Source: Felis catus (Eukaryota). Taken from it: a stretch of DNA of 64,000 nt. Of this stretch, positions 1,678 through 52,730 are shown in pieces. Made by a program: the position numbers and the translations under genes. The notes beneath the pieces are model-generated. The model searched no databases. It was not told where the DNA came from and saw only the letters and a program-made list of their open reading frames with translations. Each line of letters begins with the position of its first letter. The stretch's first letter is position 1. The stretch covers positions 36,086,001 to 36,150,000 of the forward strand of contig NC_058368.1 of NCBI RefSeq assembly GCF_018350175.1, given 5' to 3'.

Positions 1678-1812
<135 letters not shown>

Positions 1813-9740: not shown

Positions 9741-10312
9741 GCCTTGTTCTACAAAGCAAGTTGCGGAGAATATCATTTTCAATTTTTCTGATTCCTAAGT
9801 ATTATAAATGAAACTTCTTTTGTAACAGAGATTTTCACTTTTTCTTCTTTTTGTCTAAATGTGAGCACCCTATCCACTTTAGTATGTAAGCATGAGACAT
9901 TCGTTAACACCATGTGCGTGCCAGGTGTCTGAATATGTTTGAGACCTTATTTTCCTCTTGTAACAGTTCTTGAGACAACAAAGACCTGGATTATCTTTCT
10001 CCCTTTTGCTTCTTTGGAAAATACATTTCAGGGTAGAGCAATATCTATGGGAATCCTAGAAAGACACATCTATCTTTCATCCCAGTCCACCGAATCCTGG
10101 AAGGATATAATCTACTACTCTTGTCCACTGTCCACTCAGTCTGTAATTAAGGTAGAGAAAAATACTCTGTAGTACAGCATGAACCAAAACTAATGAAGGA
10201 TGCATTCCGTTCTATCTACACCAAGGTACGATAAATGACAGGAAAAACAATAAGAGCATCAGACTGAAGAATAAGAGGGTGACAAGAGAAGGTTTAGTGG
10301 TCTGCTCCCCAA

Positions 10313-10560
10313 TGCATGACAGTGCACCACCATGGGTCTCTTACATTTCTGCATGCATTGCAAGCCAAGGCACTGACTGCCGTTCTTCTGGATGAACTTT
10401 TCAAGGAAGTTTGAACAGCAAATGGGTAGGCATGCTTCATGTCCAGTCTAATAAAGATTATGTCTCTTTGGAGCAAAAGGCAGGCACAATTACAACCCAT
10501 TATAAAAGATTAGGATTTCCTAAATTCAGAGTTCCTGTCCTGTAGCACAACCTGGCATCC
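10313..10560 (+). mobile_element. 5' LTR remnant (5' half), LTR40-like
   Basis: ccatgggtctc..tttctgca..ggcactgactgcc..ttttcaagga..ggagcaaaaggcaggca..cccattataaaagatt matches the recalled LTR40a 5' half, including TATAAAA. Confidence 0.75.
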
Positions 10561-10959
10561 CCACCCTATCTTCAGACTCTCCAAAACCAAGGCCTGCACT
10601 CAATTTTATCCTGAACTGGGAATCCTACTGTTTATCAGACAATTGGGAGGCCACGTTTTAAGCACTATTACCCATTAGCCCCCTATTTGATAAAGATCCC
10701 ATTTGGGGGGCTCCAATAACTATAAACAATGCTTTCATTCCAGAAGCACCATGTAGACATTCAAGACCACATATCTTATGAAGAAGCAAGGCATTAACTT
10801 GCTTGTCTCTCGAAAAACACCAACTTTCACCTTAGAGGTGATCATAAGAGATTTTCAAGTGTTTAAGCAAATGCTAGCGGTACACCGTGCAGTCCTCAGA
10901 CAACCACGACAAGCTCACTCTCCAACTGAGGCTATCGTTGGTCCTGGAGAAAAAAGTTA

Positions 10960-11350
10960 TTTATGTGTACATGCAGGCAGTTATCCCTATGATGGGAATC
11001 ACCCAAGTGGAAAAGGCGCTAAGAAATCTGTCCCCAATTTTAGTTGACATTATCAATGATACCACACATTAGCCCCAGAAAGCACTCAGATTCAACTCAC
11101 TAGCCAGGGTTGTTATGGATAAAAGTATTGCCCTAGACTTCCTTCTTGCTGAACCAAGGGAAGTCTGTGCAATCACTAATATGTCATTCTGTACCTGACT
11201 ACCTCAGACAAGGTGGAAAAACCAACCGAAAAAAATTAAGAAAAAAGCCTCCTGGTGTTCAAAGTCAGACCTTGATGGTCTGTGGGGTTTGTGTAGCTGA
11301 CTGGATCTAGGACCTGGAAGGCCTGGCTGAGGTCCATATGACAGGCTAGC
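10960..11350 (+). pseudogene. Decayed endogenous retrovirus env, TM subunit (gamma-type)
   Basis: One frame reads AVIPMMGITQVEKALRNLSPILVDIINDTTH*PQKALRFNSLARVVMDKSIALDFLLAEPREVCAITNMSFCT*. This is a heptad repeat, an immunosuppressive-domain-like segment and a degenerate CX6CC motif, with stops and frameshifts. Confidence 0.85.
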
Positions 11351-11448
11351 CTCAACTTGCTTAGAGTACAGCTGACCAAGAGCTTTAATTAAATACTCTG
11401 AGATAAACTGAAGAGATTTCGTCATAGCTTTTATCAATCAAAATAAGC

Positions 11449-11697
11449 GCTGCCTGTGATGGAAGAGTTGAATTCCCTAAACTCAAGGTTTCTCTCCTAA
11501 AACACAAACCACTGCAACTGGAAACTGGGGCTGATACAAAGCTGTACTTGAGCCACTACTATTGCTGTGGGTAATGAAGTCCTTTGTTTTCGACCCAGGC
11601 ATTTATGTCTTCTCATAGCATGCATAAGACTAACATGGCAGACTAACACATTAACTTATAAGTGACACAAAATCACAGACCCTTCATCTTCTTGACA
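11449..11697 (+). mobile_element. 3' LTR remnant (3' half), LTR40-like
   Basis: ttccctaaactcaaggtttctctcct..aagtcctttgt..gacccagg..tggcagactaac..aaaatcacagacccttca..cttgaca matches the recalled LTR40 3' end with terminal CA. Confidence 0.75.
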
Positions 11698-13634
11698 CTC
11701 CCCACCCATGAGTCCAAGAGGACTGAAAGAGGAAGACATCATAGGAAAAAACGAAGCATGCTGTCACCACAGGCCTGAGAACACGTACACAGAAGCAAAG
11801 CCAAACATCCACCCAAAAAAACTCAAGGATTACCACCCTTCGATTCCTTTCCTGACAAAAATCTACCACAATTCAAACAGTCCTCCGACCAACGGCAAGG
11901 TTTTGGACAAACTCTTTAGAATCCAGATAATGTTTCCGATACTCTAGCAAATTATGGCTCTAAACTGAGAAGGGAGAAGATACACGTATAAAGGAAAAGA
12001 AAAATAAAGGGAAAGAAACGAAAAGAACAGATACATTCAACATGCGGTTGAAACTAGGGACTGGTTCACCCGCACTTATTCCAACCCTCTTCTGGGAAAG
12101 CAGACTGTGTCAATATGAGAGGACAATCATACATATCAAGACCGGACCCCATGAGGAAAGGTTTGGGTCTGTGGCAGAAGCACTATTGTCTGCTCTAGGG
12201 TCTCAGGTGCTGACTAGAATAGAATGTTGGGAGTGGTTTTTCCCTTAGAACATTCACGGATGTTGTCTGGCATTTCTTCTACATTACGTCTGTAATACCC
12301 ATCCACACACAGTTCCCTCCCACAAGTTCTGTTAAGGTATCCAGCACCATTTCCTGCTTAAATTACCCACTGTGGATTATGCTGCTTGAAGCTGAAAACA
12401 TCTCTCTGATACACTTGAGAAAAGAAAGTAATGTATAATTTAAGTCTGATATTTATATTTGTACTTTCTTTTCTGATAGGTAAGACTCTCTAAGGCCTGA
12501 GGATAATTTTAACATTTCTGGGACTCAGTTTTTCACTTTCTTTCTCTACCATATGCGTGGGAGGAATGAAAGTTATGTTCAGTTCTATCAAAAACATAGG
12601 CAGTCACATTATCTTCATTATTATCAGACTCAAAAAAAAAAATCTAACAACCCTCCTTTCAAAAGTACTTTGTTATACTTTGCAATAAAAGAACAATGAG
12701 ATTTTTTTTTATTTTATTTTACCATCTCCCACTTACTCCAATTTAAAAGCAAACAAGTGGTTTCTATTTTATTCAGTGACAAACAAGTTTCATTTTTAAT
12801 TTGGTGATTTGCTAATATCCACCAGCCTAGCACATTTCAATCAATGCAAAGTATACAGGTAATGTTATAAAATGGGCACTTAGTACTCAACAGTTTCATG
12901 GGCAAATTGATAATGAGCTAGCTCTAAAATATACTTTATTGTAGAAAATTCAGAAATATCCAAAGAAAAAAGTATTTTTAGGTATTACTAAAGTGTTGCA
13001 TGATCTTTTTAAAGGAAACAGAGAACAACCAGCAACCCCCAAAAAGACAATCTACTTACTACCCCCCCCCCCACCAACACACAACCCTTCTCCCTAAGTT
13101 AGTTATCTGAAAAACAGTACCTTTAACTCCTAACTTAAGCTTGCCACCTGCTAGCTATTTCATATATTAGGCTTAGTAATAATGAGAAACCTTCCTTCCA
13201 GAATAAAAATCCACAACAAAAGGGTTGAGTAGGGAAAATAAGAATTAAAATTCTTCCCATTGTTTATTCATCATCAAAAGCATACAAATTTAATCTGGCC
13301 TTATCAGAAAAATGGGGGAAAAAATGCTAAAATGAATTTTCACTTCTCAATGAAAATTAAACTTTTAAAAACTGTATGAAGAAATTTTAGTGTTTCAAAA
13401 ATAACACAACTAACCATAAAACAAAATATAATTACTTACAACTGAACAAATTACTTTCATAAAAGCAAACACAATCAGCCACCTAGATCTTGGTATAAAA
13501 TTTCTCAAGAACTGAATCAGATGATTTAAACAACTATCAAGGGGAGGTGTTGCTGCTAGCCCTGCCCCGACCTTTATTCCCCTAACGCTAAAGACGGCAA
13601 ACAAGCAGTCATTGAAAAAAAAAATCATCTCCAC

Positions 13635-14770: not shown

Positions 14771-14884
14771 AAAACGGCTTTGTTCTTAACAAGACATTTT
14801 TTACCCCTTTCCTCAGACAGAGCTTTAAAATGTTAAATGATATAATATTGCCATAAACTGGGACCTTAGTTTTACCAAGATTTG

Positions 14885-15560
14885 TTCTTAACTGTTTATT
14901 TTGAAATAATTGTAGATACACAGAAAGTTGCAAAAAGAAACAAATGCACAGGTAGATCCTAGGTATTCCTAACACCTTGCATGATTATAATACAACACAA
15001 AAACCAGGAAAGTGAAATTGGTACAACCCACAGAACTTACTTAGCTTTTAGCAGGCTTACACTCATTTGTGTGTATATGTACAGTTCTGTGTGAGTTCAT
15101 CCTATGTATACGTTTGTCACCATCACCACAATCAAGATGCAGAACTGTTTCACCACACACAACTCCCTGCTGCCGTTCATTTATGGTCACACCCAACACT
15201 TTCTCAGACCCCGTTCCAAATCTTTGGCAACCACTAAACTGTTCTCTGTCTCTAAAACCTGGTTCTTTCAAGAACGCTATATAAGTGCAATCACAAAGTG
15301 TGTAACCAACAGCACTGGCATTTTTCAATCAAGGTAATTCTCTGGAGATTCACGTAAGCTGTTGTATATATCAATAGTTCATTGTTTTTCATTACTGAGT
15401 AGTATTCTAAGATACACGTGTACCACAGTTTAACCCTTCATCTGTTGAAGAACTTCTGGGTTGTTCCCAATTTGAGTCTATGAAAAATACATGAACAGGT
15501 TGTGTGTGAGCATACATTTTGTTAATCTGAGATATGTTCACGGGTATTGCTAAGTTCTAA
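14885..15560 (-). mobile_element. Old L1MC-like 3' fragment
   Basis: ttttgaaataattgtagatacacagaaagttgcaaaa and caatagttcattgtttttcattactgagtagtattc are typical reverse-complement L1M 3' UTR. Confidence 0.7.
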
Positions 15561-17574: not shown

Positions 17575-17770
17575 TTTTTTAATTTATTTTTTAGTATTTA
17601 TTTATTTTTGAGAGACAGAAGACAGTGTGTGAGTAGGGAAGGGGCAGAAAGAAAGGGAGACACAGAACCGGAAGCAGGCTCCAGGCTCTGAGCCGTCAGC
17701 AAAGAGCCTGACGAGATCATGACCTGAGTCAAAGTTGGACGCTCAACCAACTGAGCCACCCAGGTGCCCC
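17575..17770 (-). mobile_element. CanSINE with a small internal deletion
   Basis: Reverse-complement SINE with TSD aacagcacttaaatattt on both sides. Confidence 0.93.
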
Positions 17771-18214
17771 AACAGCACTTAAATATTTAAATATCTTTGA
17801 AAATCCTAGTGTACCTTGGTCTCCTTATTATTCATGCAAACTCTTAACTTTTCAGATATAAAAACTAATAATTCAGCAAAAAGCCGTAATTCACTTAATT
17901 GTCCAAACTTCATAAAAAGTTGTAATTATCAAGTAGTAAGACTAACAGAAAATAAAGAATTCATGGACTTTGATTATCGATTTTATAGAAATCCCTAGTA
18001 AGTCAGCATCTAAGAAAGTAACCCAAGGAAATAATAATAGGTATACACCAAGTTATAACTATAAGAACACATTGTGATACATTATACATTAGAATTCCAT
18101 ATATTTATTTGAAATGTTATAAAACATTCAATGGCATGCAGGGTTTCATACTTAAATATAAGCCAGTCAGAAAACAGTTATAAAACAATATGTAAGATTA
18201 TACCTGAAACTTAC

Positions 18215-18320
18215 CTGCAGCTGAGCTGAATCATGCCTGAGACCTTCCACAATAGATGAAAATCTGTCAACGTTTCTTTCTTCTCCAGCTGATGTTAAAG
18301 CTTCTAAAACTTCTTCAAGG
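18215..18320 (-). CDS. DIAPH3: DIAPH3 coding exon (~exon 9), 106 nt
   Basis: Junctions tgatag|CCTTGAA...CTGCAG|gtaagt; encodes (I)LEEVLEALTSAGEERNVDRFSSIVEGLRHDSAQLQ, also visible inside ORF 18167..18433; phase 2 to 0. Confidence 0.97.
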
Positions 18321-18519
18321 CTATCAGAAAATTTGAAATTAATTAAATTGCCAACAGCAAATAATCTAAATGCCTTAATACAACTGCTTGATCTATTCAA
18401 CTCCAGAGTCACTACTCCCAGAACCAGCAACATTTTAAAAGCTTACTGAGTACATAGCATGTATCAAGTACTAGCTACATGTTTTAATTCATTTATGCCT
18501 AATAACCCTATGATGAGGA

Positions 18520-19397: not shown

Positions 19398-19592
19398 GGG
19401 GACATCTTTGTCCGTGGACACACACCTAGCTACCCGTGTTGCCGCGGGGGGACATCCTTGTCCGTGGACACACGCTGTAGCTACCCGTGTAGCCATGGGG
19501 GGACATCCTTGTCCGTGGACACACACCTAGCTGTGCAGCCGCGAGGGGACATCCCTGTCTGTGGACACACACCGTAGCTACCCGTGCAGCCA
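19398..19592. repeat. Minisatellite/VNTR, 4 units of about 46-51 bp, CpG-rich
   Basis: Unit GGGGACATCCTTGTCCGTGGACACACACC(G)TAGCTACCCGTG..GCC starts at 19398, 19448, 19499 and 19545. Confidence 0.95.
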
Positions 19593-20037
19593 AGGGCGGG
19601 GCCTGAGTCTTGCCTGCTGACTCTCCAATAATCCACACAGAGCAGCTCAACAGTTGCCAGGCCCAGGAGGGTCGCCACAAGGACAATTTTCAAATGCGTG
19701 CGGGAGGGTCTGCTTACAGGCCTCTCTACCTAGCCTTTATGAAAGGGCTATGTATTTACTCTGTAGGTTGTTCTGTTTTTATATCTTCTCCCTTTTTAAA
19801 AGGTATTTTAAATAATTTTTAACTGCTTCCTGTAATAAGAATCCCAACCTTTCAAAAAAGAAAAAAAAGGGGGGTGGAGGTTTATCTCTATAATTATCTT
19901 TTAATATGTATGTAATGGTCTTTTGCTTACAATCCTAATATGTGTGGATAATGTCTTTAAAGTTTAAAACTTCAGGATGTATTTTATGGTCAAAGACTAC
20001 CCTCAACCAGTAAAGTACTATTACATATAGCACTTTT

Positions 20038-37300: not shown

Positions 37301-38214
37301 TATACTGGCATGTGCTCTAATCAAAACTTTAGTCCACTATTAAAAGAAACATTGCAGAAAAAAAAAATCTTTTGGAATGTATTAAATAGGAGTAAAGGAG
37401 TTTCTTGGTATCAAATCAAAATATCATTACTTCAGGAAAGCACTAATGAATTTTTCATCTTAAACAGACTAATTTGACAACCAATATGCGAGGGGGGAAA
37501 GAACCCATTTTAGTGCAGGTCTTCCACCATCTGTTTTCACCCAAAGTACTTGCTACTATTGCCCAATACTAGTCCCATAAACTTCATTATTAAGTCTATC
37601 ATCTGCTCCTCATTCTGTCAAGTTCATTACTACCTTCACTCATAATGCTCCCCTCCAAAGAGCTGCCTCTTCAGTTACAAACGAAACTATTTCACCTTTC
37701 AAGAGCCAATGCAAGTTTGTCTTCTTTGAACTCTAGTTCATCTAAGTTTCTCCATTTGCTTACTGGGTCTTACCCACTTGGCCCCAGATCTCTCTCCAGT
37801 TACTGTCCGTTTCTTTTTTACAGCATAATGTCTCAATTGCCTCTGAAGAATGGTTAGTATAAGAAGTACTTCTTCACCATCTATTCTTTACCATCCATTT
37901 ATTCCATCTCACTTCATCTGGCTTCTGCCACCCAGACTCCACAAAACTGCTTTCCTCGAAGGTCACCAAGAACGCTCCTCTTGCTCATTCTGGCAGTAAC
38001 ATCTTGCCCCAGGTCTCAGGAGCATTCATGTGGTTTGCCACTTGACCCTACTGAAACTCTCTTCCTCTCTTAGGCTCAGGAAACCAGCCTTTCTGGGTTC
38101 TCCTCCTCCCAAATGACCACTGCTCAGTCTGTTTTTCTGGTTTCTCTAGCCTTTCTAGACCATGGATAACTGCTGGAGTTCCCCAGGGCTTCTTCTGAGT
38201 GTTTTTCTGCACCC

Positions 38215-38455
38215 ACCATCCATCCATCCATCCTTCCTTCCTTCCTTCCTTCCTTCCTTCCTTCCTTCCTTCTTCCTGCCTTCTTCCTTCCTTCCTTCCT
38301 TCCTTCTTGGACAACTCCCACTGCTGCCATTGGCTACAACTCTGGGGTGGTTTTAAAATACATCTTTCCTTCCTTCCTTCCTTCCCTCCTTCCCTCCTTC
38401 CCTCCTTCCCTCCTTCCTTCCTTCCCTCCTTCCTTTTTTCTCTCTCTCTCTCCGC
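38215..38455. repeat. Compound (CCAT)n/(TTCC)n/(CCCT)n microsatellite in two blocks
   Basis: Directly visible tetranucleotide arrays at 38215-38306 and 38364-38450. Confidence 0.95.
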
Positions 38456-39002
38456 CCCCTGCACCCCCCACCTGGACTCTCAACTATTCTCAGTGCTTTA
38501 TGTACAGTCTACATATCAACAGTAGGTAGGCATCTCCACATGTCTCCACTGAGCTCCAGACTCCATTATCCAGCTGCTTGCTTGTTCATATCTCCAACTG
38601 TGAAACTCAAACATATCAAACTTAACGTGGTTAAAACAAACATTTTTGTTTTCCACAAAATGTATGAAACAAGTAACAAAACCATCTTCCTCTATCACTG
38701 TTAATGGCACTACTTTCATCAGGTCACAAAATCTAGAGGTCATTATTGATTCCTCCACTTCAGTCACACACCACAGCCGATCTGTCAACAGGTCCTACAG
38801 TCTGTACCTCCGGTTTATCTGCAAAACCCACCCTCTCATCGCCCCACCACGACTACAATCCTCATCCAAGCCATGCTCATCACTCCTGTGACTAGGCCAT
38901 AGCCTCCTTTCTGATCTCCCTGTCCACTCTATCCTCCCTTCAATACACTGTCCCCAAAGCAGTTCCTTTTAAAAGGTAAACTTAGAAATATGTGATTTCC
39001 AT

Positions 39003-39118
39003 GGGGTGCCTGGTGGCTCTGACAGCTCAGAACCTGGAGCCTGCTGCGGATTCTGTGTCTCCCTCTCTTCCTGTCTCTGTCTCTCTCTGTCTCTCTCTCT
39101 CTCAAAAATAATTGAACA
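39003..39118 (+). mobile_element. Internally deleted CanSINE
   Basis: ggggtgcctggtggct is joined directly to ctgacagctcag; degenerate TSD tagaaatatgtgattt/tagaaatacgtcattt. Confidence 0.85.
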
Positions 39119-40067
39119 TAAGAAATACGTCATTTGCTATGTAAATCTCGTTAACAGCCTCATACTTATTTAAAAAAATCTTATGTCTCCCCCCAAGTCA
39201 CCCTTAAGGCCTCTCATGACCTGGCCACTGTCCACCTCCCTGATGGCTCCATGGCCTCTGGGATTCCATCTCCCTCCCTCCACTCTCCTGCCACTCTCCA
39301 CTTTCCTCACCTCAGGGTCTCTGCTGCCCGAGAGGTGCTTCCTGGCCCTGAAGCAAAGCCTAAGCTTCTCTTAACTAATTCCTTGTCTTCTTAGTCTCTT
39401 AATCTTTACTACCTCAAAGACTTCCTCTGACGAGCTTGTATCTAAAAGTGCTCTATGCACTATTCTCAGTCCCTGATTTTTTCTTAACTGAACTGGTATC
39501 TTCTGTTATATATTTTCTAGGTCTTACCCCTAGATGCCTCATTCCTGTGATACCTAGCACAGCACCTGAGAATTCTGGTTGCATGAGATTAACAAATACA
39601 TCCTCTGCTGTACTCTAGTGGCATTTTATCCATACTACGCACTCAAAGAGCTGGTGGTATCACTTACTCTATGTGTTCAACGTTTCTCTCCAAATGTGAT
39701 CTCAGCAAGCTGAAGCCAGGGAGAAGCCTTTACACCTCTACGAGTTTTCCAACAGAGAGGCGTGTGAAGAAACTCAAACCACCGGACCCCCTACCCTAAA
39801 AACTGACTGGTGGCACCTCATGCATTTCATATTATTTCATGTTTTAACTTCCCTATTCTCTTTTCATTATTCAACTCCATTTAACATGCACCCTGATCTT
39901 CCGAGTCCATGTGACAGTTCCTCAACAACAATTAATTAATTAATAATATTCTGGCCTCCTCCTCAGAATGCCACACCACAGCAGAGATGCCTTATCTTCA
40001 GACTCAAGAATGCAAAGGCTCAAAACAAGTGCACAAAGAATATCATCACATGACTTGCTCTCAAATT

Positions 40068-48479: not shown

Positions 48480-48710
48480 GGGGCGCCTGGGTGGCTCAGT
48501 TGGTTAAGCATCCGACTTTGGCTCAGGTCATGATTTCACAGTCTGTGGGTTTGAGCCTCGCGTTGGGCTCTGTGCTGACAGCTCGGGACCTGAAACCTGC
48601 TTCAGGTTCTGGGTCTCCCTCTCTCTACCTCTCCCCAGCTTGTACTCTCTCTCTCACTCTCAAAAATAAACATTAACAAAAATTTTTAAGAGATAAATAA
48701 AAATACATAA
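48480..48710 (+). mobile_element. CanSINE
   Basis: ggggcgcctgggtggctcagttggttaagcatccgac head, CT tract and tail. Confidence 0.93.
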
Positions 48711-52476: not shown

Positions 52477-52730
52477 GGGTGCCTGGGTGGCTCAGTTGAT
52501 TAAGTACCTGACTTCGGCTCAGGTCATGATCTCACGGCTGTGAGTTTGAGCCCCGCGTCGGGCTCTGTGCTGACAGTTTGGAGCCTGGAGTCTGCTTCAG
52601 ATTCTGTGTCTCCCTCTCTCTCTGCCCCCTCCCCGGCTTGCATTCTGTCTTGCTCTCAAAAACAAATAACTCCGGCTTGCATTCTGTCTTGCTCTCAAAA
52701 ATAAATAAACACTAAAAAATGTATTTTAAA
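52477..52730 (+). mobile_element. CanSINE with a duplicated 3' segment
   Basis: gggtgcctgggtggctcag head; TSD taaaaggactttctca (52461-52476 and 52733-52748). Confidence 0.94.

Follow-up and report, generated by a model that had tools for sequence, protein, structure and literature searches.

The host intron and the layout of the element

The window analysed here is the whole 64,000-nucleotide stretch from position 36,086,001 to 36,150,000 of the Felis catus contig NC_058368.1 (forward strand), with a GC content of ~37%. Minus-strand exons at 376–519, 1296–1415 and 1702–1812 match consecutive parts of the diaphanous FH3 model, and one of them is similar to DIAPH1 structures at the level expected of a paralogue (E = 9e-4). 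From these exons and a further probable exon at 18.2–18.3 kb it follows that the element described below is antisense within an intron of a diaphanous formin gene. The preliminary description of this locus, made from the sequence by itself, had placed the element antisense to DIAPH3; the orientation stands, and the gene is probably DIAPH3. Atlas gave no help in naming the host exon. The features are as follows.

1702–1812, minus strand: host diaphanous formin exon, downstream of the element-bearing intron (Drf_FH3, E = 1.3e-16)
10305–10309, plus strand: probable target-site duplication, 5' copy (putative length 5 bp; the exact match runs two bases further, to 10311)
10310–10552, plus strand: 5' LTR piece, LTR40A-like (consensus ~1–286, remainder of the LTR missing; start at 10310 or 10313)
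10553–10913, plus strand: internal DNA, perhaps the last part of env SU (weak alignment of two relatives as far as ~10840)
10914–11276, plus strand: env TM ectodomain fossil (profile E = 1.8e-26; stops at 11070 and 11196)
11277–11461, plus strand: probable env membrane anchor and cytoplasmic tail, eroded (interrupted by several stops and shifts of frame; aligned less strongly than the ectodomain)
11462–11697, plus strand: 3' LTR piece, LTR40A-like (consensus ~237–519 with a gap of ~45 nt; ends flush with the consensus end)
11698–11702, plus strand: probable target-site duplication, 3' copy (the 7-bp match extends to 11704)
18215–18322 (approximate), minus strand: probable host formin exon, upstream of the element-bearing intron (by-eye translation; alone, no Pfam match)

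The 5' LTR piece comprises U3, with a TATA-like box at 10501–10507, and the start of R, and is without most of R and U5. The 3' piece is without most of U3 and its poly(A) signal is eroded; about 48 bases are present in both. Neither a primer site nor a polypurine tract is left, the longest purine run before the 3' piece being 7. The observed/expected CpG ratio over 10310–11460 is 0.21. With 13–17 stops in each plus-strand frame of 10553–11460, the relic cannot code today, as had been stated on the grounds of the stops at 11070 and 11196, and it has no intact open reading frame of the kind seen in co-opted syncytin-like envelopes. The peptide frame quoted in the preliminary description is exact, both stops included, with TSDKVE and the Trp-rich pieces in the next frame. 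A stop-free frame of 96 codons (10757–11044, plus strand) overlaps the probable SU/TM junction in another frame and has no Pfam match. At least half of the element's words are present in 17 of the 24 sequencing runs listed, RNA-labelled ones included, which is no evidence of expression; one run that contains part of the element bears the label feline metagenome.

Several other features of the window are recorded here for completeness. Its longest stop-free frame (197 codons, no start required) runs antisense across a formin exon at 346–939 on the plus strand and probably arose by chance. What we take to be tRNA-derived SINE copies of carnivore type, recognised in translations, lie at about 14800–14980, 17600–17790 and 48500–48670 and indicate a feliform host. 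The next formin intron holds a GC-rich minisatellite at 19398–19596, with about four copies of a 51-bp unit (or two of 97 bp) and 81–86% matches. Microsatellites of TTCC type, and a stretch strongly skewed towards C/T (GC skew −0.39), occupy 38219–38435 and 38001–40000, and a near-perfect 39-bp tandem duplication at 52633–52708 (97% matches) looks recent.

The LTR pieces and their flanks

The LTR pieces were compared by hand with the LTR40A consensus given in supplement 2 of PMC3601003. Consensus positions 18–110 equal 75 of 93 bases at 10330–10422 in an ungapped alignment, and the last ~134 bases of the consensus equal 101 of 132 at 11563–11697, with three gaps and a flush end; both are by-eye counts against one subfamily only. 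The opening 17–20 bases of the 5' piece match LTR40A poorly. By eye, both pieces appear to be of LTR40 type, in keeping with the identity first proposed for them.

The stretch shared by the two pieces, 10505–10552 and 11462–11509, is identical at 34 of 48 positions in an ungapped alignment. When it was slid over 127,906 positions on both strands of the window, the runner-up reached 26 of 48. The direct repeat reported earlier is thus real, but its coordinates were one base off and give 20 of 48 as written. The 20 largest families reported by a generic repeat finder do not include this repeat. When the two ends were aligned in full with lenient gaps, the score was not significant, 43 of 500 shuffles attaining it, so that only the short 48-bp stretch is common to both ends; the similarity of the 5' LTR U3 to 11300–11460 was likewise not significant. 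Both copies of the shared stretch have, by eye, two common non-CpG differences from the consensus, a weak sign.

The word CTCCCCA stands at 10305 and at 11698, as had been reported, and occurs 11 times on the plus strand of the 64 kb. A 7-mer match at such spacing was found at 75 of 61,000 control positions, and a 5-mer match at 1,068 of 61,000. The end of the 3' LTR is fixed exactly by LTR40A, which places the target-site duplication at 11698; a CCCAA/CCCAT duplication that would put the end of the element at 11704 was ruled out, the LTR40A end being 11697. For an LTR40 element one would expect TG...CA termini and a duplication of 4–6 bp. The 5' LTR starts either with a TG at 10313, one base from the 7-bp match, or at 10310, where its end would be eroded and the 5-bp match perfect. 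Target-site duplications of 7 bp are long for a retrovirus. The matching flanks of the candidate duplication stand, and a length of 5 bp (CTCCC), with erosion of the LTR start, fits equally well; on duplication size we prefer the 5-bp reading with the LTR starting at 10310.

The envelope fossil and its relatives

The preliminary description had identified a gamma-type env TM between the LTR pieces and had named the Pfam TLV_coat model as a first check of that claim, the lack of any env HMM match being among the outcomes said to refute it. Pfam searches of six frames and four sub-pieces of the window returned no family, TLV_coat included, and the homology of the TM consequently had to be sought with sequence and profile searches. 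A phmmer search with the residues encoded at 10965–11198 against 1.84 billion representatives yielded 55 matches, of which 52 are env-like, syncytin-Ten1 and EnvV2-like proteins among them; the best env-like match has E = 5e-10 and 47% identity. The three others (P0002, P0012 and P0024) are unrelated repeat proteins and were dropped. TLV_coat is found in 31 of the 55 relatives at E ≤ 0.01, and 24 of the 55 reach the curated cutoff. Among ten clusters that were looked up, the named members include syncytin-Ten1, envelopes of birds, and sloth and elephant proteins that are EnvV2-like, and the relative P0022 is placed by Atlas with chordate env fragments (0.93).

A search of PDB with the single sequence found syncytin-1 at E = 1.2 only, with the ISD aligned to that of syncytin-1 without gaps; the top match, a designed repeat protein, was dismissed as chance. 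A profile built from the window piece and 21 relatives matches syncytin-1 and -2, FRD, S71 env and MLV p15E, with syncytin-2 at 8e-12. A second profile, built from 20 longer relatives with the window sequence excluded, matches 10914–11276 at E = 1.8e-26, against 0.019 for the second-ranking site across six frames of the 64 kb; these relatives had originally been found with the window query, and the control measures specificity within the window, not independence. Word-index protein searches gave no match among longer proteins, and 11 near-length matches with a profile. On these comparisons the stretch 10914–11276 is established, at the level of homology, as a gamma-type Env TM. Towards the 3' end, single relatives aligned in a frameshift-aware manner reach 11297, 11354 and 11464. 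Upstream, an SU-only alignment on 10560–10960 does not rise above controls, 36 of 158 of which reach its summed score, and an RxxR site near 10900 was noted by eye only.

The TM fossil contains the fusion-peptide region, a first heptad with an N-x-T sequon, the ISD and an eroded CX6CC hinge. The gamma-type signature, as characterised in PMC9967133, is an ISD of about 17 residues with CX6CC directly after it, and a glycan at the heptad stutter is also described there; further marks of this Env type are a CXXC motif in SU and a furin site. In the window an ISD of ~17 residues is present, in columns shared with the relatives; after it, the first and third Cys of the hinge stand at the right spacing and the middle Cys, a Cys in 35 of 58 relatives, is absent, a loss that we read as decay. 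The sequon in heptad 1 is N-D-T at residues 31–33 (N in 39 of 58 relatives, T in 48 of 58). The ISD is of Asp type, Asp standing at the position of the syncytin-1 Gln.

A tree of 59 rows and 78 columns, from which one short row and the three repeat proteins were left out, places the window TM in a clade of 27 rows, itself and 26 short unnamed ORF rows, with a support of 98/96 that is rough, the bootstrap not having settled. The clade is star-like with long tips, its members have at most 162 residues, and none of 12 members looked up has an informative name, which suggests that it may consist of dead copies of one old multi-copy repeat family. It stands apart from the Ten1, EnvV2-like, beaver and bird envelopes. 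The nearest named proteins, EnvV2-like and syncytin-Ten1, are 36–45% identical over the TM and have the same Asp-type ISD and N-x-T sequon; unlike the window TM, they are long or intact ORFs outside the 27-row clade. CARenvV, according to PMC9604959, sits at another locus with other LTRs.

A second DNA copy linking this env to LTR40 was not found in viral and metagenome contigs or in a phage collection, which are mostly microbial collections in which blanks say little. Alignment searches of the viral and metagenome contigs gave no paralogous DNA, and a protein search of the viral contigs gave one short chance locus only. An LTR motif scan gave 0, 3 and 1 loci; the three metagenome loci matched over the motif alone and the fourth came from a bacterial genome.

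Probable origin of the element and its possible place among class III retroviruses

We consider it probable that the element is one collapsed LTR40 (HERVL40-type) provirus with a gamma-type env, antisense in the formin intron and shortened by two deletions. Both LTR pieces are collinear with LTR40A and on the same strand as the env, the env lies directly before the 3' piece, and one flank word brackets the whole element. One provirus with two deletions would explain this order and orientation together with the doubled stretch and the single flank duplication. The preliminary reading of a single collapsed provirus with gag-pol deleted is thus upheld as the best one, though two deletions are needed because the 3' LTR has also lost most of its U3. 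In this scenario an LTR40 provirus carrying a gamma-type envelope would have integrated antisense into the formin intron, probably in an early placental mammal, with a short target-site duplication. One deletion, beginning in R of the 5' LTR, would have taken the primer site, gag, pol and the greater part of SU, and another would have removed the polypurine tract and most of the 3' LTR U3; the remnant has decayed and yields no protein. From what is known of the family, the TM of the living virus would have been a class I fusion subunit, disulfide-linked to SU and glycosylated at the heptad stutter.

The shared 48-bp stretch is 29% diverged (K2P 0.385), which corresponds to about 84–87 My at a rate of 2.2e-9, the rate used in PMC9604959, with an interval of 44–151 My for an age that rests on 48 bases. 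The insertion would be very roughly 85 My old, consistent with integration before the carnivores. The single provirus, its age and its class III backbone are all inferred.

As one alternative, a solo LTR40 could have acquired an env fragment of an unrelated ERV1 (HEPSI, MER66 or PRIMA41 type) through recombination or a further insertion, with ~48 bp of the LTR doubled in the process. Together the two LTR pieces do make up roughly one LTR, an Asp-type ISD is also present in the class I env groups mer50b, prima41a, mer66a, herv1artio and hepsi1a (PMC4724089, supplement 4), and LTR-env recombinants are reported in primates (bioRxiv 2024.10.28.620668). We nevertheless regard this as unlikely: by eye neither a poly(A) tail nor a second set of LTRs is seen at the junctions, a 48-bp duplication would be long for L1 or an integrase, the orientation and position suit a provirus, and in the tree the TM is separate from the EnvV2-like and Ten1 proteins.

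The provirus could also be real and its backbone not class III, LTR40 having been filed under ERV3 by LTR likeness for a virus with a class I pol. The class III assignment made earlier agrees with the Repbase label of the LTR but is taken from that label alone, no gag or pol being left in the element, and Repbase puts HERVL40/LTR40 (LTR40A–C and HERVL_40 in Table 4 of PMC5753468) in an unclassified subgroup of ERV3. We think such a backbone quite improbable, as the same source gives HERVL_40 as the internal sequence that goes with LTR40A–C, supplement 2 of PMC3601003 aligns LTR40A with MLT1F, MSTA1, LTR41B and MER54B, and a 5-bp duplication generally suits ERV-L. Finally, an LTR-env-LTR form deleted before integration and spread non-autonomously, or a relic now kept as a cis-regulatory element of the host gene, would fit the retention of one and the same TM stretch in many dead relatives (a feature for which the query itself selects) and the mention in PMC7145552 of LTR40 as supplying transcription-factor binding sites in human cells, but is very improbable, since by established retrovirology an element without one U3 and one U5 should not be reverse-transcribed and integrated normally, and no sign of constraint was seen.

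Under the favoured reading of a single LTR40 provirus, the preliminary description's combination of a class III element with a class I-type envelope holds for the gamma-type TM, but the combination itself has been described before. ERV3 families with ERV1-like envelopes (HERV18, HERVL32 and HERVL66) are given in PMC5753468, all class III envelopes found in PMC4724089 clustered with class I, XtERV-S is an intact example from a frog (PMC8278194), and the point recurs in PMC10536682 and bioRxiv 2024.10.28.620668. The original envelope of HERVL, if any, is unidentified according to PMC4724089. Like HERVS/HERV18, HERVL32, HERVL66, the HERVLc chain and XtERV-S, the element is ERV3-type, by its LTR label, with a gamma-type TM and an ISD, followed here by what is probably an eroded form of their cysteine hinge; XtERV-S also has the stutter glycosylation site. 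All of these keep pol, whereas the element is without it. According to supplement 4 of PMC4724089 the ISD is Gln-type in HERVS, HERVL32 and HERVL66 and Asp-type in the HERVL chain and HEPSI1a; the element agrees with the latter, HERVLc and HEPSI1a. Compared with LTR40A and HERVL40 themselves, to which both pieces match at ~77–81% by eye with the 3' end flush, the element has only part of each LTR and no gag-pol, and its host is a feliform carnivore. We found no description of an LTR40/HERVL40 env in the openly accessible literature searched, including PMC7649802, PMC12265279 and PMC7145552, although subscription papers, bioRxiv supplements, and Dfam or Repbase entries may well annotate it; LTR40 is not mentioned in the main text of PMC4724089 (Vargiu) and has 17 mentions in its supplement. 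Envelope-bearing class III relics are thus already known, and this env lineage was not found described.

As one of many dead ERV relics that encodes nothing, the single locus matters little. Its value is that of a pointer, tying an LTR40 end to a gamma-type TM that stands apart from the named envelopes retrieved. These results lead us to speculate, tentatively and against our own expectation, that the LTR40/HERVL40 virus had its own undescribed gamma-type env lineage, with an Asp-type ISD and a heptad-stutter glycan, captured independently of HERVS, HERVL32 and HERVL66, and that it spread among early placental mammals as a genuine extracellular virus, of which dead copies alone are left, none of those looked up having a name. 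If true, this would be one more separate env capture by class III retroviruses, of roughly ERV-L's own age. If the link between this env and LTR40 holds genome-wide, it would bear on the question raised in PMC4724089 of the original HERVL envelope, as well as on the frequency with which class III retroviruses acquired envelopes of class I.
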